From Minisyncoccia bacterium (GTDB lineage: Bacteria > Patescibacteriota > Minisyncoccia > Phycocordibacterales > UBA9973), in the NCBI GenBank assembly GCA_041737125.1, contig JBGSSJ010000013.1:6236-70235 (forward strand): a DNA stretch of 64,000 nt. The letters run 5' to 3'. The notes below the pieces were generated by a model. That model was not told where the DNA came from, made no database searches, and worked only from the letters and a program-made list of their open reading frames with translations. Positions 37,205 to 48,802 of the stretch are shown here, one piece after another. Position 1 is the first letter of the stretch, and each line of letters opens with the position of its first letter. A program made the translations under genes and the position numbers.

Positions 37205-38944
37205 TTACATTAAGACTGCTTTTATACGGCGGACACCTTGGGCTGTGGCTTCCTCTTTCTGTATTTTGAATATTCCAAGCTCGGAAGTATTGCCGACATG
37301 TGGTCCTCCACAGAATTCTTTCGATATTGGATTCCCATCTTTGTCTTCTATGAAGTAGACAGATACAACTTCAGGGTACTTTGTACCGAATTCCATCTCA
37401 GCGCCTAATTTTTCCGCTTCAGTAAGTGGCATCTCACGACGAACTACATAGAGCCCTTCTGATATTTTCTCATTAACCCAAGCTTCTACCTTTTGCTTTT
37501 CTTCATCAGTCAACTTGTGGTCACAGAGGAAGTCCATACGTAAACGCTCTTCGGTAATGTTACTTCCCTTCTGCTTAATATTTTTACTTACTATTTCTTG
37601 TAGTCCGGCAAGTAGTAGATGATGTGCAGTATGGAGCTTGATAGTCTGTGGCTCATGATTCGCAAGCCCACCTTTGAACATTCCCGCAGATGCAGTTTGT
37701 GAGAGCATAACATGCGCTTTCATTTGCTCATTAAAACTATCTATATCTATGGCAATTCCTTTTTCCTTCGCAAGTTCAAGAGTTAGCTCAATCGGAAAGC
37801 CGTATGTAGTAGCAAGAACAAATGGGTCAACATTTTTCTCGAATTCCTTGAGACCTGTTTGTAAAGTGTTTAGAAACTTTTGCTCCTCTAATTTAAATAC
37901 CGATTCTATGTCTACACTCTTTAACTTTGGATATATAGAAGAATAAAAATCTATATAATATTTTATTATATTTGCAGGCAACACAGCATCGCTATTAATT
38001 TGTTTCATTTTCAGAACAGCTCTTCTTATTAACCTGCGGAGTATATATCCTTGGTCTTTATTCCCTGGTATTACTTCGTCTGAAATTAAGAAAGTTGCAC
38101 TTCTTAGGTGGTCAGCAATAATTCTTGCAGATTTTTCTTCATAATTAGACGAGCTATCTTTTATCATTTCTATGACTGAAGAAAAAATATCTGTCTCATA
38201 TATACTTTTCTTACCTTGAGCGACAGTTACAACTCTTTCGAGCCCCGAACCAGTGTCCACATTATTCTTCGGAAGTTTACCTACAACCTTACTATTCTCT
38301 TGTTTGTAAACCATAAAAACATCATTCCAGATTTCAACCACTTCCTGCTTATCTTCAGCTATTTCAAAACCTTCCTGATTCATATCTCCGAGAGTTCCAG
38401 TTAGATCATAGAACATCTCTGTAGAAGGCCCAGCAGGAGAATTCGGTCCGGCACTCCACCAGTTTGATTTAGAACTTTTGAAATATATTCGATGCTCAGG
38501 TATTCCCAATGATTTCCATATTTCTACTGCTTCCATATCTCTTTCAACTTCCTCACTACCTCCGAAAACAGTAAAGTATAGACGTGCCGGATCAAGACCC
38601 AACCCTTCTTCTTTAGAAGTCAGGAATTCATAACTCCATGTGATAGCTTCTTTTTTAAAATAGTCGCCGAGGGACCAGTTCCCGAGCATCTCAAAAAAAG
38701 TAAGGTGTGTATTATCACCTATTTCATCGAAATCAACAGTGCGTAGACACTTTTGATAATTTACAAGTCTAGTGCCCTCTGGATGTTCTTTGCCTAAAAG
38801 GTATGGCATTAGTGGTTGCATACCGGCTGTATTAAAAAGCACAGAAGGATCGTTCTCTGGTACAAGCGAAGCTGAAGGTATTATTTTGTGCCCACGTTTT
38901 ACAAAAAAAGCCAAAAATCTATCCCTTATCTCATTTGATTTCAT
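37205..38944 (-). CDS. alaS: alanyl-tRNA synthetase, short form lacking the C-Ala domain
   Basis: N-terminal class II catalytic core (FNTAGMQPL..., FFEMLGNWS.GDYFK), editing-site ligands HTAHHLL and CGGPHV. Only 579 aa. Confidence 0.85.
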   Translation of the reverse strand: MKSNEIRDRFLAFFVKRGHKIIPSASLVPENDPSVLFNTAGMQPLMPYLLGKEHPEGTRLVNYQKCLRTVDFDEIGDNTHLTFFEMLGNWSLGDYFKKEAITWSYEFLTSKEEGLGLDPARLYFTVFGGSEEVERDMEAVEIWKSLGIPEHRIYFKSSKSNWWSAGPNSPAGPSTEMFYDLTGTLGDMNQEGFEIAEDKQEVVEIWNDVFMVYKQENSKVVGKLPKNNVDTGSGLERVVTVAQGKKSIYETDIFSSVIEMIKDSSSNYEEKSARIIADHLRSATFLISDEVIPGNKDQGYILRRLIRRAVLKMKQINSDAVLPANIIKYYIDFYSSIYPKLKSVDIESVFKLEEQKFLNTLQTGLKEFEKNVDPFVLATTYGFPIELTLELAKEKGIAIDIDSFNEQMKAHVMLSQTASAGMFKGGLANHEPQTIKLHTAHHLLLAGLQEIVSKNIKQKGSNITEERLRMDFLCDHKLTDEEKQKVEAWVNEKISEGLYVVRREMPLTEAEKLGAEMEFGTKYPEVVSVYFIEDKDGNPISKEFCGGPHVGNTSELGIFKIQKEEATAQGVRRIKAVLM

Positions 38945-39898: not shown

Positions 39899-41605
39899 TT
39901 ATAATACTTCCTGTTGATAACATGACTCACAGTAGACTACTTCTTGCCTGCTTGCTTGGTATGGTGAGTTTATTTCTTTTTTACAAAAATCACATTTGCT
40001 AATATAAAGTTTCCTAGGTAGTAATTGACTTAATCTATCTGTATATCTAGTATTCGGTGCTCTCCTAGGTAGTGCAAGACCAGCTTGTCGATAGAAAGAT
40101 AGCTCCATAGGAATAATCTTATAAGCTTTACCAGTATCCTCACATTTAAGTATCTTCTCTAAGATATCATCTTCGACATCTTTTATATCATCAGGAATAA
40201 TATAATTTGAAAATTCGTAATGTATATCTGAAACATAGTCACTCCAAGTAAATCCTTGATCTAGAGCTTTTTCTTTCTTTAAAGGGAATATTTCAGGAGC
40301 TGTAGTTTCATTATAACCAAAAGGTGAAAATTCGCTCGGGAAAAATTCTCCATATTTATAAACTCTGCCTTTATTATCAACATAAGGTATATCATTCATA
40401 TGCGCTTTAATCTTTGGAAGTAATTCTTCGTATTCTTCTTTGGTATATTTTTTATTTAAAATAACATAATTCCCTCCACGTATACATACACATCCAAAGC
40501 AATTCGACGCGCTAGTAGTGAAAGCAGAGTATTCTACATCGTTTATGGTCATCTTTTTAAGTGGATCATTAGAAAGACAGAATAATAGAACTTTCGAATT
40601 ATAAGCTCCTCCGCTATGAGCACATTCATACACAAGCTCTGCCGCACCGAAACAAGAACAATCATATGAATCCCGAGTCCATCCTGCAATACTCATGTTT
40701 TTACAATTCTCAAGTTTTATACTCTCCCAACAATTATGAGCATTTTTACATTCGGAAAGATTGTTACCAGTTGAATTTACTGATTTAAATATTAGATTTT
40801 CTCTGTGGGGAGAATTATTCCAAATATTTTTTATTTTTTCTTTCCACCATAGAATACCTGAATGAGACGAAATGGGATGTAACTTTAAAAAATCTTCGTA
40901 CGATTCTTTACTATGTTGTTCATTAAAAATACAATATTGTTTATTACGAAGGCCAGCACAACCAATAACATTAATACAATTACGACAATCATAGGAGAAG
41001 CTTGTATGCAAAGAGTCATAACATTCGTATGAATAATGAGTAAAGTAACAACGCTCACAGTGAATGTTGTGGGCACAATTATCAGAATTTAAAATCCAGT
41101 AATTATCGAAACAATTCTTTCCGAATACTTCATAAGCATTATAAGCAGAATCTTCATTAGATAAACCTCCAACATTTAGATAACAATTTTTATCATCTGT
41201 TTCTTGATTCACCCAATCACTGTTTATACAATTTGAATTGAAAATAGAAATATGAGGAAGGTTAAAGAATAACTCTTTCCATTGTTCGAAAAAAGGCTTC
41301 GAGAAATCATAATCTTTACCATAAGAAGTCGGGTCCCATTTATCACTCCACCAGCACGTAGAACAATACATTTTATACTTCTTATCTGGAGATACACGAG
41401 AAACTACACTCTTACCACACATATTGCAATCATTTTTATATAACATTCTTTCATTACGAAAAGAAAGTCTTCTTTGTTCTCTACAATCTGGACAGAATGT
41501 CGGAGGAGGTACATTTATCTTCTCATAAAAATCAAAATCTTGTGACTCTATAACGAAGTTATTTTTGCAGTTCTGACATATTTTGTTTTCTATTTGATTT
41601 TCCAT
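39899..41605 (-). CDS. Cys-rich protein, paralog A: full-length 568 aa with zinc-ribbon-like modules at both ends and a central CxxC-repeat region
   Basis: The N-terminal module (CxxC plus FCPDCREQRRL..RN..LY..C..C.KSV) and C-terminal module (FYRQ...RYTDRL...LY..CDFCKKEIN...YCESCYQQE) are internal repeats. Centre carries NCYL, NCFD, HCERCYF, DCRNC, GCAGLRNKQYCIFN. No signal peptide. Confidence 0.6.
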   Translation of the reverse strand: MENQIENKICQNCKNNFVIESQDFDFYEKINVPPPTFCPDCREQRRLSFRNERMLYKNDCNMCGKSVVSRVSPDKKYKMYCSTCWWSDKWDPTSYGKDYDFSKPFFEQWKELFFNLPHISIFNSNCINSDWVNQETDDKNCYLNVGGLSNEDSAYNAYEVFGKNCFDNYWILNSDNCAHNIHCERCYFTHYSYECYDSLHTSFSYDCRNCINVIGCAGLRNKQYCIFNEQHSKESYEDFLKLHPISSHSGILWWKEKIKNIWNNSPHRENLIFKSVNSTGNNLSECKNAHNCWESIKLENCKNMSIAGWTRDSYDCSCFGAAELVYECAHSGGAYNSKVLLFCLSNDPLKKMTINDVEYSAFTTSASNCFGCVCIRGGNYVILNKKYTKEEYEELLPKIKAHMNDIPYVDNKGRVYKYGEFFPSEFSPFGYNETTAPEIFPLKKEKALDQGFTWSDYVSDIHYEFSNYIIPDDIKDVEDDILEKILKCEDTGKAYKIIPMELSFYRQAGLALPRRAPNTRYTDRLSQLLPRKLYISKCDFCKKEINSPYQASRQEVVYCESCYQQEVL

Positions 41606-41644: not shown

Positions 41645-42580
41645 CTAAACCATTTCTTGTTGATAACATGATTCGCAGTAGATACGATACAGTTGTTGCT
41701 TCTCTTTGTCGTACGATGTATTTATTGATTTCTTACAATTTGCGCAAGTTGCTTCATATAGCGTACGTGGTAGTCTGCTAAACATTCGCTTCTGGTGCCT
41801 ACAGTTGAAGCACTCACTTGGAATTACAATATTCATCCTCTTATAGAAAGCAATCTCACGGGAAATAAGCTTGTAATTCTTCGTACAGCTTGTACAAGTA
41901 AATATTTCTTTAGTTAAAGATTCATCATAATCACTCGGGCTTGCTGGTATAGAACTATACTCTATGGTTCCTTGTCCTTGAGTAAAAGGTAAGTCGTACT
42001 TCCATTTATATCCTTCTTCAAGCGCATCTTTCTCGTCTTTATTTATATATTCATTTATTATCGATTCGTTATAAGCAAATGGACTCATCCATATAGGGAA
42101 GAATGATCCATACTCCCCTTTCTCTTTTAACAAAGAAATTATTCTGTCTCGTAAAATAATATAATCTTCTTTTGTGTATTGTTTATTAAAAATACAGTAT
42201 GACTTATTCCTAAGTCCTAAGCATCCAAATAAATCGCTTGAGTTATAGCAGAACTCGCTATACATCACATCATGACTCTCGACAACATTATGTGAGAACA
42301 GAACATTCTTACCAATACAATTTAGAACTTCATAACAGCTTTCCAATACAGGAGAAAAAGATCCGTCATAAGTATCAATGGCACTTCTAACTGTATAGAC
42401 GTATTTCGAATTCTCTCCACTTTTTACATCGAAACCGTGGTGTATGTTATGGGAATTATAAATATGATTTCCTGATACATCGTTGTTATGAGAGCCGAAG
42501 AACGATATTTGTGGTAAGAACCTTTTTAATTCTTCTACTTTGTCTAGTATCATACTGAGCTTCTCTTGCGACATAGGCAT
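41645..42580 (-). CDS. Cys-rich protein, paralog B C-terminal half
   Basis: 311 aa. GCLGLRNKSYCIFNKQYTKEDY... and C-terminal YCESCYQQEMV align with the C-half of 39899..41605. Same frame as the upstream N-half, separated from it by one TAA. Confidence 0.55.
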   Translation of the reverse strand: MPMSQEKLSMILDKVEELKRFLPQISFFGSHNNDVSGNHIYNSHNIHHGFDVKSGENSKYVYTVRSAIDTYDGSFSPVLESCYEVLNCIGKNVLFSHNVVESHDVMYSEFCYNSSDLFGCLGLRNKSYCIFNKQYTKEDYIILRDRIISLLKEKGEYGSFFPIWMSPFAYNESIINEYINKDEKDALEEGYKWKYDLPFTQGQGTIEYSSIPASPSDYDESLTKEIFTCTSCTKNYKLISREIAFYKRMNIVIPSECFNCRHQKRMFSRLPRTLYEATCANCKKSINTSYDKEKQQLYRIYCESCYQQEMV

Positions 42581-42607
42581 GAGCTCGTTTTTAATCTGTT
42601 TATATTC

Positions 42608-43303
42608 TTATTTGGAAACTGGCTGATTAAAAACATAGTAAGATTTACCATTGAGACCTACACACCCTATGCAATCAGTGCATCCTCTGCAGTCAAAGAG
42701 CCCTATGCTATCGGCACAACTTTCGCACTCTTCTGAATAGAAAAGCTTGTTGCAATATAAGCAATCTACGCATTCATAACAAGATTCTGATTTAAAAATA
42801 TAAAGATTATCAATAGTATCTTTCGAACTCCAAACTATATGTCCATAATCACAATCTTCATTCTCAACACAACCAAAACACAAATAACAATTCTTACTGT
42901 TATGAGCCATATTTACGTACTCTGAATTTGTACAATTTGTTTGCCCTAGGGACGCTCTAGGGACTTTCTTAAAAAGAGAATCTAGTTGCTCAAAGAATGG
43001 CTTCTTGAAGTCAAAATCTACTCCATAAGACATTGGGTCCCATCCATCACCCCACCATTCACTTACTTCATAAACTGTATAAAGAGAATCCGGAGAATAC
43101 ATCGATATCATTGATTTCCCGGACAAATCGGAATTTCTTTTATACAAAGTTTTAAAATTACGATAAATTAACCTTCTATTATTTCTACAAGCTGAGCAGT
43201 AGTTTGGGATCGGTACATCCATTCTTTTATAGAAAGATAAATCATCTATATCTAAATAGAATAATTTTTGGCACTTTTCACAGGTTTTACTTTCTGTTTC
43301 CAT
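42608..43303 (-). CDS. Cys-rich protein, paralog B N-terminal half
   Basis: 231 aa. KTCEKCQKLF...SFYKRMDVPIPNYCSACRNNRRLIYRN...NCYL...CxxCxxCxxC...GCVGLNGKSYYVFNQ aligns with the N-half of 39899..41605. Ends at an in-frame TAA at 42608-42610. Confidence 0.55.
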   Translation of the reverse strand: METESKTCEKCQKLFYLDIDDLSFYKRMDVPIPNYCSACRNNRRLIYRNFKTLYKRNSDLSGKSMISMYSPDSLYTVYEVSEWWGDGWDPMSYGVDFDFKKPFFEQLDSLFKKVPRASLGQTNCTNSEYVNMAHNSKNCYLCFGCVENEDCDYGHIVWSSKDTIDNLYIFKSESCYECVDCLYCNKLFYSEECESCADSIGLFDCRGCTDCIGCVGLNGKSYYVFNQPVSK

Positions 43304-46273: not shown

Positions 46274-47569
46274 TTATAAAGGTAGGTTTGCAGGAGGTTT
46301 TGCAATTTTAGATTCAAGTCTCTTGAAGCTTGGAGTCTCAGACACCATACCTGGGAAGTGGAATATAGTCGCAAGCTCACGAGAAGACATGACGAATAAC
46401 TTAGGTGAACCTGATGGGAAAAAAGCACTTAATATCTTCGGATACTCAACTGAATACTGAAGTGGTGGATGGAACATTACTCTCATTCTATAAAAATCGA
46501 GGCATCGTTTCTTGAGCTTTGTAAGAGCAAGTCCTGTTGGGTCAGACCATGGTGCGTCGAACTGTGTAGAATTGATACGCCATAATTCATTTATATCTGG
46601 CTGAGCATACTGGCGCCATATCAAGCGTGAATTTCTACGAAGATTATTAAATTGCTCATCTGTGCAAAGTCTCTTATCTGATAGCGTGACTACTCTTATA
46701 CCACAATCAAAGTGAATTAAGCTCGCATTTTCAACCATTACTTTAACCTTACTTTTTAGTGGATCCGGCGTACGCATGTCCATACCGAATGGTTCACCTT
46801 TATCATTCTTCTGAATACGGGTATAAGGCATGAGCATCTTTTCAATAAATTCATACGTTGCTTCATAAAAGTTGATATGTTTACCTGTGTGATGACTATG
46901 ATACTCTTTTATATTTTGTCTAATAATTATTTGTATCCAGACCTGCTGACCACGAGGAAGTGAACCTAGGAATTCTATAACTGGTGTTATAGGGTCAATC
47001 TTATACTCTTCCTTCGTACCACTATCCATCTCCTCCATATCTCTATATGTACGAATAGGAAGGAAATCTTCTTTCTTTTTATTATAGTCACAACCCCATA
47101 CATTCCAATCCCCATTCTTCTTATACTGTGGTACGTGAAGAGTATAATCGTCCACTTCTACGACTTTGGCTTGTGGATACTGAGCATATATCTGAGTTTC
47201 TACAAGTTCGCGCATACGAGTGGGAGTACGGATGAAGAAATGCACTTTCCCATCAATTGATGCCATCTCAAGCGAGAACCAGAACCATGGTGCACCTTGT
47301 ATATACACTTCCCAGAAACCTTTAAGAGTTTTTTGATAAAGAGCATTTGAAAGTATGAGCTCCATAGCAGCCGGAGACTTGATAACATCACGTGGGACAT
47401 GGATTTCAAGCAGGGCCCACTTGATTCCTGCAATAAAGCGCTCTTGTCTGTAGTGATGCCACAAACGAAGTGCTGCAATTGATAGAGGAATAGGCATGAG
47501 GTAGCCAATAGCCACGAGTAGCATCTGTATTAAATTAAAATTATGAGTTGCAAAAAATTCTGAAAGCAT
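46274..47569 (-). CDS. hypothetical membrane-anchored protein (N-terminal TM + 390-aa domain of unknown function)
   Basis: 431 aa with no recognisable motif. Immediately upstream of mltG and co-oriented. Confidence 0.45.
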   Translation of the reverse strand: MLSEFFATHNFNLIQMLLVAIGYLMPIPLSIAALRLWHHYRQERFIAGIKWALLEIHVPRDVIKSPAAMELILSNALYQKTLKGFWEVYIQGAPWFWFSLEMASIDGKVHFFIRTPTRMRELVETQIYAQYPQAKVVEVDDYTLHVPQYKKNGDWNVWGCDYNKKKEDFLPIRTYRDMEEMDSGTKEEYKIDPITPVIEFLGSLPRGQQVWIQIIIRQNIKEYHSHHTGKHINFYEATYEFIEKMLMPYTRIQKNDKGEPFGMDMRTPDPLKSKVKVMVENASLIHFDCGIRVVTLSDKRLCTDEQFNNLRRNSRLIWRQYAQPDINELWRINSTQFDAPWSDPTGLALTKLKKRCLDFYRMRVMFHPPLQYSVEYPKILSAFFPSGSPKLFVMSSRELATIFHFPGMVSETPSFKRLESKIAKPPANLPL

Positions 47570-47744: not shown

Positions 47745-47772
47745 AAAGAAATCCCCGTAGGGGGATTTCTTT
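47745..47772 (-). terminator. terminator downstream of the sigma-r4/HARE-HTH gene
   Basis: aaagaaatcccc-gta-gggggatttcttt, then a T-rich tract on the minus strand. Confidence 0.75.
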
Positions 47773-48802
47773 AGACTGCGCTATATAGACTGTTCTTGCC
47801 TTTCTTAAAATATTTTGAATTTTGGAGGTTTACTAAAATAGTATTTTTCTTCAAGTAGCGTTCCTTCATGACTTGCTCTACTATATCTTCCTTGCTCATA
47901 GGACCATTCTTCTTCAGTAATTCGCGGATAACATCTCGAACTACTCCAGACTTGTAACCCCATTCAGATAACGCGTATATTCCACGGCCGACAAGAACGA
48001 AACGATTATCTTTTATTAGTTCATTATGACAAGTCGCAGTGTGGCACTTCTTATCGAAAGTATTTACTATAGCTTTTGCTACTTCACGGAAATGCATAGG
48101 GGAACCATGCTTGCGCATCATAAGGAAAGCATAATCTTTTATCCCACGAGTTTTGATACTAGATGAAGTAGATTTACCCCACTCACCCAGCGGATTCCTA
48201 TTTATCTTCTTTGACATAGAGAGCCACCTCTTTGCTATCTCTTCATGTTTGTATTGTTCAGATAGAGCTTTGACTTCATCAAGGAAGCGAGCAATTAACT
48301 CACTCTCAGGCACTAACTCATCATCTGATAAATTCTCATACAAAGTCTTGAGTGACTTATGAACTTCTTCTGATATATCTCCATCTACACTCCATCGTGT
48401 TTTAAAGTGTTCATCTTCTTTGTGCTTGGTAAAATCGTCACCTAAAGTTAGATATAAGTGTATGTGGTTTTGAGTAAGCTTATCCTTAGATATATGGTTA
48501 AGTAATTCATGCTCAGAAACGACAGCTCCTAATGTATGCATTAACTTCTTGAGTTCTTCGAATACTGCCTTCTCATCTTTGAAAGTTTGTGATTTGCGTA
48601 TAAGACCAAGAGCTGCATTTTCAATCTGACGTACACGCTCACGTGTAATGCCATACTTTTTGCCGATAGCTTCTAGTGTTTTCATCTCTGCATCGTCTGT
48701 AAGACCGAAGCGATTTGTAACTACTTCGTAAGCTCTATCAGGTAGATGCGATAGCATGCGCTTTGTTACTTGTTTTGGTTTAAATGTTATAGGATTAGCC
48801 AT
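47771..48802 (-). CDS. protein with N-terminal sigma-70 region-4 HTH and C-terminal HARE-HTH-like domain (unknown function)
   Basis: LPDRAYEVVTNRFGLTDDAEMKTLEAIGKKYGITRERVRQIENAALGLIRK matches sigma70 region 4.2. C-terminal HFREVAKAI...RFVLVGRGIYALSEWGY resembles RNAP delta/HARE-HTH. Regions 2 and 3 are absent. Confidence 0.55.
   Translation of the reverse strand: MANPITFKPKQVTKRMLSHLPDRAYEVVTNRFGLTDDAEMKTLEAIGKKYGITRERVRQIENAALGLIRKSQTFKDEKAVFEELKKLMHTLGAVVSEHELLNHISKDKLTQNHIHLYLTLGDDFTKHKEDEHFKTRWSVDGDISEEVHKSLKTLYENLSDDELVPESELIARFLDEVKALSEQYKHEEIAKRWLSMSKKINRNPLGEWGKSTSSSIKTRGIKDYAFLMMRKHGSPMHFREVAKAIVNTFDKKCHTATCHNELIKDNRFVLVGRGIYALSEWGYKSGVVRDVIRELLKKNGPMSKEDIVEQVMKERYLKKNTILVNLQNSKYFKKGKNSLYSAV

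Follow-up and report, generated by a model that had tools for sequence, protein, structure and literature searches.

Cysteine-rich proteins of Patescibacteria with double zinc-finger modules and a predicted duplicated beta-solenoid core

We have analysed a stretch of 64,000 nucleotides from a Minisyncoccia bacterium (contig JBGSSJ010000013.1 of assembly GCA_041737125.1; hereafter the 64-kb window), on the minus strand of which a gene for an unusually cysteine-rich protein, copy A, lies beside a paralogue, copy B. Judged by its sequence, copy A is a soluble protein with two homologous double-finger modules, whose cysteine (Cys) spacing is of the treble-clef type, and with a duplicated core that keeps a 3-residue register; treble-clef geometry of the fingers and 12-residue solenoid coils in the core are features of structural models. 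Cys makes up 34 of the 568 residues of copy A (6.0%), against an average of about 1.1% for the long open reading frames (ORFs) of the window, and copy B has 32 Cys (5.8%). A preliminary description of the gene had put the count at about 40; the richness stands, but the number is 34. The N- and C-terminal strings quoted in that description are both present in the 568-residue translation, and copy A has more of the Asn-Cys dipeptides it had pointed to than chance would give (9 where 3.0 are expected; 13 of 5000 shuffles reach 9). We found no hydrophobic segment in copy A (maximum Kyte-Doolittle value over a 19-residue window, 0.93) and neither a signal peptide nor a membrane segment, the N-terminus being a zinc finger. 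Since the protein is soluble and has neither of these export or membrane features, a cytoplasmic location is most likely. The isoelectric point (pI) of the whole protein is 5.7, that of the terminal modules 8.1 and 9.0, and that of the first half of the core (core 1) and of the linker about 4.6-5.0. The features of the two genes are as follows.

39899-41605, minus strand: copy A, whole gene; 568 residues, 34 Cys, soluble
41456-41584, minus strand: N-module finger 1, residues 8-50; C10/C13/C38/C41 as CxxC-x24-CxxC, FY..VPxPT linker, basic helix CRxQRRxxFRN
41345-41440, minus strand: N-module finger 2, residues 56-87; C60/C63/C81/C84, exact CxxC-x17-CxxC
41231-41344, minus strand: connector, residues 88-125; family-wide D88, W90, D100, F105, Q108, L112 and P117, helix 105-115
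40910-41230, minus strand: predicted solenoid half 1, residues 126-232; every third, putatively inward residue is C/S/N/G/V/I/L, cap motif GCxGLRNKxYCIFN at the end
40814-40909, minus strand: two inter-half helices, residues 233-264; SKEEYxxFL, long helix 248-264
40442-40813, minus strand: predicted solenoid half 2, residues 265-388; homologous to half 1, ends CFGCxxxRxxxYxILNKxY, register looser from indels
40151-40441, minus strand: acidic helix-and-loop domain, residues 389-485; near-invariant YGEFFP..SPFGYNE (G419, P423, Y431, N432)
39902-40150, minus strand: C-module, residues 486-568; homologous to the N-module, finger 1 degenerate, finger 2 intact (C538/C541/C559/C562, CxxC-x17-CxxC)
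41645-43303, minus strand: copy B, a single frame of 552 codons; 36% identity to copy A over the full length
42608-42610, minus strand: in-frame TAA inside copy B, at the boundary of solenoid half 1 and the next helix

Terminal zinc-finger modules

The two terminal modules are duplicates of one another, as had been proposed: residues 8-87 align with residues 486-565 (BLASTP E 1e-10 in copy A and 1e-13 in copy B), and comparison of the N-module and C-module sub-alignments by hhalign gives a probability of 98.3% (E 1.7e-14). Each module has the layout of a CxxC-x24-CxxC finger followed by a CxxC-x17-CxxC finger. The consensus that had been offered for both, FY...CxxCR..RRL..RN..LY..CxxC.K, describes the N-module but fits the C-module of copy A only in part, since APNTRY there replaces CxxCR. 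In this degenerate finger C488 is the sole ligand left, and the basic helix (R520/H521/R524) is kept. The degenerate finger of copy B is the second of its N-module, with S58, S61, E79 and E82 at the ligand positions. Finger loss is therefore complementary, copy A being without the first C-terminal finger and copy B without the second N-terminal one, and because each protein has lost one finger both keep three complete Cys4 sites. Across the family, a protein either has each of these two fingers whole or lacks it altogether.

Conservation was followed in 569 non-identical family members aligned to the family hidden Markov model (HMM), with the presence of Cys scored per column and the fingers serving as positive control for a test of co-occurrence. 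The four Cys of N-module finger 1 are kept in 95-98% of these relatives, and C63, C81 and C84 are kept or lost jointly (phi 0.99-1.0), with C60 looser (phi 0.66). Columns 491, 516 and 519 of the C-module behave in much the same way (phi 0.90-0.98), and full sets of finger Cys occur at frequencies of 0.48 and 0.666, where independence would give 0.076 and 0.318.

Copy A itself matches curated finger families below their cut-offs: Pfam zf_Tbcl (PF13451) at residues 9-46 (18.7 bits, cut-off 24), and Pfam zf_Tbcl_2 (PF23477; 17.5 bits, cut-off 27) and NCBIfam TIGR04272 "CxxC-x17-CxxC" (17.2 bits, cut-off 36) at residues 531-566. These matches fall exactly on the fingers, in copy A as in its relatives, and the terminal modules belong to a known domain type. 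At the family level, zf_Tbcl_2 matches 27 of 49 homologues at E <= 0.01 (best 1.7e-7) and zf_Tbcl matches 6 of the 49 (best 8.6e-6); a copy-B orthologue, P0374, scores 25.1 bits against zf_Tbcl. Because copy A is sub-threshold while the family-level zf_Tbcl_2 matches are significant, we read it as a divergent relative of zf_Tbcl_2/TIGR04272 and not as a curated member. The resemblance lies in the CxxC-x24-CxxC and CxxC-x17-CxxC spacing that the copy A modules share with zf_Tbcl/zf_Tbcl_2 ("probable treble clef") and TIGR04272. Here, however, the two types of finger make up one fused module of 80 residues, present twice in each protein, with one finger ligand-less; zf_Tbcl and zf_Tbcl_2 are short domains of unknown function, and they account for about 160 of the 568 residues of copy A. 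We found no paper on zf_Tbcl, zf-trcl, IPR025306, TIGR04272, PF23477, DUF8128 or PF26449.

Both AlphaFold models, assigned with DSSP, have the arrangement expected of a treble clef. The first Cys pairs lie in hairpins (6-9/16-19, 56-59/66-69 and 534-537/544-547) and the second pairs at the N-termini of helices that begin at residues 39, 82 and 560. Structural search of BFVD returned only short zinc-ribbon matches, to phage "putative zinc-ribbon domain" proteins, with a root-mean-square deviation (rmsd) of 0.7-1.5 A over about 40 residues. Copy A would hold three structural Zn(Cys)4 sites (C10/13/38/41, C60/63/81/84 and C538/541/559/562), and its fourth finger, being degenerate, is predicted to be Zn-free.

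The duplicated core and its cysteines

The core between the modules is also duplicated: residues ~106-242 align with residues 255-398 (hhalign 99.5%, E 9.6e-23), and both halves close with a GCxGLRNKxYCIFN..SKEEY motif. The resulting order, Zn-core-core-linker-Zn, is not one that a simple tandem duplication would yield. Cys had been described as recurring about every 14 residues, a spacing that the sequence does not bear out, the gaps in core 1 of copy A being 15, 24, 12, 6, 3, 9, 12, 3, 6 and 9, all of them divisible by 3. In core 1, all 11 Cys of copy A fall at 0 mod 3 (chance ~2e-5) and all 15 of copy B at 1 mod 3, a strict register that spans 100 residues in both proteins. Over the 569 relatives, the autocorrelation of Cys propensity has a maximum at each lag divisible by 3 (0.57 for lag 3, 0.50 for lag 12), with negative values in between (-0.21 for lag 14). 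At the every-third positions stand C, S, N, G, V, I, L and T. The CxxCxxCxxC runs that had been noticed in copy B, CYECVDCLYC and CRGCTDCIGC, are located at residues 175-184 and 205-214.

The earlier suggestion of a solenoid finds support in AlphaFold models made on 49 sequences (predicted local distance difference test score, pLDDT, 82.4; predicted template-modelling score, pTM, 0.84) and on 122 sequences (pLDDT 87.0, pTM 0.89), both of which contain predicted beta-solenoid strands with a 12-residue period. The DSSP string of the model repeats as "EEEE--E--E--" at this period, most clearly at residues 186-226. We read the core as a narrow beta-solenoid of 12-residue coils with a 3-residue register, the residues of which presumably face inwards. 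Residues 129-156 (~41138-41221; NSDWVNQETDDKNCYLNVGG..NEDSAYN), the most conserved stretch of A-type proteins, have a pLDDT of 42-48 in the first model and 58-60 in the second, and this low confidence could reflect an absent ligand or partner.

Foldseek searches of the Protein Data Bank (PDB) with both models returned nothing significant, the nearest structures being almost all left-handed beta-helix enzymes (E 0.05-2, template-modelling score, TM, below 0.25), and sequence searches of the PDB with the family profile and with core 1 of copy B returned nothing meaningful. The hexapeptide-repeat enzymes gamma-carbonic anhydrase, LpxA/LpxD, GlmU and PglD are the sole recurring Foldseek neighbours of both models, and they resemble the core in the solenoid stacking of short strands and in small inward residues, but they align with it poorly (TM 0.07-0.25, rmsd > 10 A) and have triangular 18-residue coils built of hexapeptides of the pattern [LIV]-[GAED]-x2-[STAV]-x in place of the 3/12 periodicity found here. 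Membership of this group was rejected, there being no Hexapep match, no catalytic His motif of the trimer interface, a wrong period and a poor TM. The core is also reminiscent of the beetle antifreeze helix of the Tenebrio type, a 12-residue Cys-rich beta-helix; the likeness lies in the 12-residue coils (residues 186-226, and the lag-12 autocorrelation of 0.50), the small inward residues and the many Cys. Copy A, however, is without a TxT ice-binding face, a signal peptide or fixed i/i+6 disulfide pairs, and carries zinc fingers of a cytoplasmic type. Membership of the antifreeze family AFP (PF02420) was likewise rejected: hmmscan at E <= 1 did not bear out the faint precomputed marks that three copy-B orthologues carry, no window protein matches PF02420 at that threshold, and no antifreeze structure is among the Foldseek results.

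The preliminary description had also suggested that the core Cys form a multinuclear metal or iron-sulfur (Fe-S) site, and here the co-occurrence test points the other way. Core CxxC pairs and quartets occur at the frequencies expected under independence (0.355 against 0.347, 0.568 against 0.544, 0.831 against 0.822 and 0.606 against 0.609), and no pair of core Cys columns has a phi above 0.54. The number of core-1 Cys ranges from 3 to 19 per protein, and copy A itself carries broken core CxxC pairs (S198, V213). Core Cys are replaced most often by Ser, and also by Val, Ile, Leu, Asn, Gly, Thr and Ala. No co-varying set of three or four core Cys, no ferredoxin-type CxxCxxCxxxCP motif and no Fe-S match in Pfam or NCBIfam was found. 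Since the core columns vary independently and the substitutions are mainly to Ser, variation within the family argues that the core Cys are packing residues and not ligand sets.

An old gene family and its neighbourhood

Copy A has more than 5263 matches, a lower bound, and copy B 1806, nearly all of them 550-600 residues long; a search with just the core brings up 2241 clusters at 50% identity, and among the top 150 all full-length members have the core at the same position. Records that carry a source name give the relatives as "hypothetical protein", a few as "zinc-ribbon domain containing protein". Relatives are encoded in 560 stretches of species-representative genomes. The named records are from Patescibacteria groups (Nomura-, Giovannoni-, Wolfe-, Lipton-, Staskawicz-, Jorgensenbacteria and others), the exceptions being two records filed under Gammaproteobacteria and Burkholderiales, perhaps bins with a wrong label; many others read just "bacterium" or "uncultured bacterium". 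The IMG/VR viral contigs hold no relatives, which indicates that the family is not phage-borne. We thus find an old multigene family, seen here only in Patescibacteria (Paceibacteria/Parcubacteria).

Of 82 related loci, 50 hold at least two full copies. Tandem arrays reach eight copies at locus L003, and 11 copies and one partial copy within a 22-kb stretch at L032, which overlaps L030 on one contig. The best identity within a genome has a median of 44%, compared with 59% between genomes, and the between-genome value is the higher one for 95% of 203 copies. Because identity within genomes lies below that between genomes, the paralogues are old on sequence grounds; average-linkage clustering gives 18-29 recurrent subgroups, at least 18 of which we regard as old subfamilies. 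Copies A and B fall in different old subfamilies, and the family HMM finds no third copy in the window. None of Pfam, NCBIfam, PHROGs, PADLOC and PDB covers the 400-residue core, and we found no paper that describes it. Copy A has no match in PADLOC or PHROGs, and the N-terminal half of copy B has one weak PHROGs match, to a family of unknown function (E 2e-4). A published account of protein families of the candidate phyla radiation makes no mention of this one (PMC6744442).

Copy B is listed as two ORFs (42608-43303 and 41645-42580) but is really one frame split by a single TAA, and its downstream part is annotated separately by NCBI as a 309-residue protein (P0322). The copy-B orthologues are uninterrupted and about 553 residues long, one of them (P0271) having 554 residues and 73% identity. 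All eight aligned copy-B orthologues have Glu at the position of the TAA, and alignment of the proteins makes a one-base change from GAA to TAA the likely origin of the stop. Sporadic in-frame stops (TAA, TGA and TAG) also occur at differing sites in family copies of unrelated genomes (L079 1254-1256, L001 417-419 and L069 20640-20642), a scatter that suggests either frequent decay of single paralogues or assembly errors. Programmed recoding at the TAA of copy B was considered and is unsupported. Because orthologues have Glu and the stops at other loci sit elsewhere, the TAA is best taken as an ordinary nonsense mutation or an assembly error.

The commonest neighbour outside the family is a protein cluster present at 36 of 84 loci, nearly always close by and on the same strand. 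This cluster mixes two kinds of protein, a membrane protein (the L003 gene is marked Pfam DUF8128) and a soluble ATPase that matches TrwB_AAD_bind, T4SS-DNA_transf, TraG-D_C and DUF87/HerA, which we refer to as VirD4/HerA-like. The ATPase is present at 33 of 82 family-anchored loci, and 47 of its 48 copies are read in the direction of the nearest family gene. The zf_Tbcl_2 finger is found above threshold (46-50 bits) in five of six ATPases examined, and the ATPases whose sequences were read have a long low-complexity tail. The finger reads CxxC..VPF.P..GRPVYCxxC, and a conserved motif like "KEVPEDVLKKILE" closes most copies. The ATPase (L001 5765-7996, L029 8141-9988, L064 7976-10006 and L066 8576-11584) is very well conserved, at 58-79% identity between genomes, and has no membrane segment. 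One PHROG profile, 824 positions long, aligns through its C-terminal half with the ATPase (E 2.5e-59) and, weakly, through its N-terminal part with the membrane protein of the window listed below (E 2e-4). Because one profile covers both proteins, the sequences suggest that the membrane protein and the ATPase may form a split membrane-anchored ATPase; the two occur together at 9 of 82 loci.

A survey of Patescibacteria found 5,713 VirD4-like genes in 2,918 genomes, of which 148 lie near virB4, and raised the possibility of exaptation; this survey of type IV secretion systems (T4SS) mentions neither zinc fingers nor the present family (PMC12102498). The neighbour ATPase belongs with the orphan VirD4-like type IV coupling proteins (T4CPs) of that survey, the homologues not encoded near virB4 (PMC12102498). 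It differs from them in being soluble, with a separate membrane protein at some loci, and in bearing a zf_Tbcl_2 finger and a long disordered tail in five of the six examined.

Within the window the relevant neighbour is the following.

46274-47569, minus strand: 431-residue membrane protein with no Pfam match; 70% identical to an ORF of L063 and homologous to the neighbour-cluster ORFs

Membrane members of the cluster elsewhere usually precede the ATPase and match the L003 gene called DUF8128. YceG, a methyltransferase and MnmA stand between this membrane gene and copies A and B. A link to the translation genes of the window (alanyl-tRNA synthetase, AlaRS; MnmA; the methyltransferase) was rejected, as none of them recurs in the 82 related loci. 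We note that at 47771-48802, on the minus strand, lies a gene for a protein with Sigma70 region 4 and HARE-HTH, and since a similar gene occurs near the family at 9 related loci this part of the window is syntenic with other Paceibacteria. The AlaRS of the window (37205-38944, minus strand) has 579 residues, with a catalytic domain and tRNA_SAD, whereas a typical bacterial AlaRS is much longer. ARAGORN finds no tRNA gene in the window.

Proposed function and alternative explanations

We lean, with modest conviction, towards a joint structural and functional explanation in which zinc fingers enclose a duplicated beta-solenoid whose inward positions are mostly Cys and Ser. About 20 core Cys would sit at every-third-residue positions that appear to point into the narrow 12-residue-coil solenoid, where Cys and Ser would serve as small packing residues in a Cys/Ser/Asn ladder. 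The rigid double solenoid might then act as a binding scaffold, with a patch of conserved acidic and aromatic residues in its first coils (129-170) as a candidate ligand site, and with the two mildly basic finger modules, through the helix C-x2-C-R-x2-R-R-x3-R-N, as candidate docking sites for nucleic acid or a partner protein. The members of the family may be adaptors or clients of the finger-bearing VirD4/HerA-like ATPase. We hold the binding role of the patch and fingers, and the partnership with the ATPase, more weakly than the structural part.

Several observations weigh against this explanation. The pLDDT is just 58-75 at residues 120-190, which include the most conserved stretch, residues 129-156, and about 70 at residues 270-350, and no solved homologue was found in the PDB. 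The co-occurrence test cannot judge the best-conserved core Cys (141, 207, 210, 216 and 372), since these scarcely vary, and a small metal site among them is possible. The putative role of the fingers in binding nucleic acid or protein is deduced from their charge and fold type. An ATPase of the neighbour type is absent from the window, and when metagenomic loci are anchored on the ATPase a family gene is present at 11 of 80 (8 of 40 among loci of at least 10 kb), at a median distance of 47 bp where it does occur; part of the association could reflect an order of genes that related small genomes have kept.

Other explanations would assign the Cys or the fingers a different role. One is that the stacked CxxC of successive coils hold a row of metal ions or Fe-S clusters. 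Since the core Cys share one 3-residue register, taken as inward-facing, they would be close in space; those of the last coils are fairly conserved (207, 89%; 210, 92%; 213, 82%; 216, 90%), and the two runs of copy B supply coils with four Cys. True Zn sites are strongly co-conserved, however, while the core pairs and quartets are not; the Cys count is too variable, Cys is swapped for Ser and also for Val, Ile and Leu even between close relatives, copy A is missing complete sets, and neither the ferredoxin-type motif nor an Fe-S family was detected. We consider a metal-threaded core very unlikely. It is marginally easier to entertain, but still quite improbable, that the family consists of exported, disulfide-stabilised solenoids akin to the beetle antifreeze proteins, that is, of effectors or surface proteins passed to a type IV-like translocase by a coupling-protein-like ATPase. 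The 12-residue coils with inward Cys, the faint AFP marks, the VirD4/TraG-like neighbour with its membrane partner at some loci, the many paralogues, as effector or variant-surface families have, and the position of most Patescibacteria T4CP genes away from virB4, maybe exapted (PMC12102498), all fit such a role. Yet the proteins have no signal peptide or membrane segment, the three to four zinc fingers per chain point to a reducing compartment and to a folded state ill-suited to T4SS export, and the antifreeze likeness was borne out by neither hmmscan nor Foldseek; in addition, orthologues are strongly conserved between genomes, unlike arms-race effectors, and the variable, uncorrelated Cys form no fixed disulfide pairs.

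The acidic and aromatic patch (D88, D100, Q108, Y142, D167 and the A-type NSDWVNQETDDKNCYLNVGG..NED) might instead be the active site of an enzyme of acyl- or glycosyl-transfer or of a hydrolase, carried on a beta-helix scaffold like that of the hexapeptide-repeat transferases. The patch is very strongly conserved, the Foldseek neighbours are left-handed beta-helix enzymes, and many old subfamilies could mean different substrates. These structural matches are, however, not significant; neither Hexapep nor any other enzyme family is matched, the period is 3/12 and not 6/18, and apart from the fingers and the solenoid positions no His, Ser or Cys that could serve as nucleophile is conserved throughout the family, so that an enzymatic role seems rather unlikely. 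Somewhat less unlikely, to our minds, is that the proteins are nucleic-acid binders in which the basic treble-clef modules bridge or clamp DNA or RNA and work with an FtsK/VirD4-like motor in the uptake or handling of DNA by nucleotide scavengers. Both modules have a basic helix after the second CxxC that is kept despite ligand loss (R42, R46 and R50; R520, H521 and R524), their pI is 8.1 and 9.0, and the same finger is carried by a VirD4/TrwB-type ATPase that matches a DNA-binding-domain Pfam model. The whole protein is nevertheless acidic and the modules just mildly basic, no DNA- or RNA-binding family was detected, and zf_Tbcl and zf_Tbcl_2 have themselves no assigned function. A more far-reaching version of the adaptor model, which is speculative and which we think quite unlikely, holds that the family members are the clients or adaptors of a Paceibacteria-specific machine for translocation or DNA handling, with an exapted split VirD4/HerA-like ATPase (membrane partner and soluble ATPase bearing zf_Tbcl_2), shared docking through the fingers, a new fold class of 12-residue coils with a strict 3-residue Cys/Ser ladder, and perhaps metal at some of the best-conserved Cys (141, 207, 210, 216 and 372).

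To return to the enclosed beta-solenoid that we favour, its strict every-third Cys/Ser ladder would be an unusual solenoid design, and the co-occurrence test with internal finger controls offers a simple way to tell ligand from packing Cys. Patescibacteria have very small genomes, and some of these tiny genomes spend long tandem arrays on this one family, with up to 11 full copies in 22 kb and a higher number over two overlapping loci of one contig; its old, well-conserved subfamilies argue for distinct, selected roles. The partial but tight linkage to the neighbour provides a concrete, testable partner for the "orphan" VirD4-like ATPases. Because no library or paper that we found covers the core, the family represents a sizeable piece of unannotated biology in Patescibacteria.

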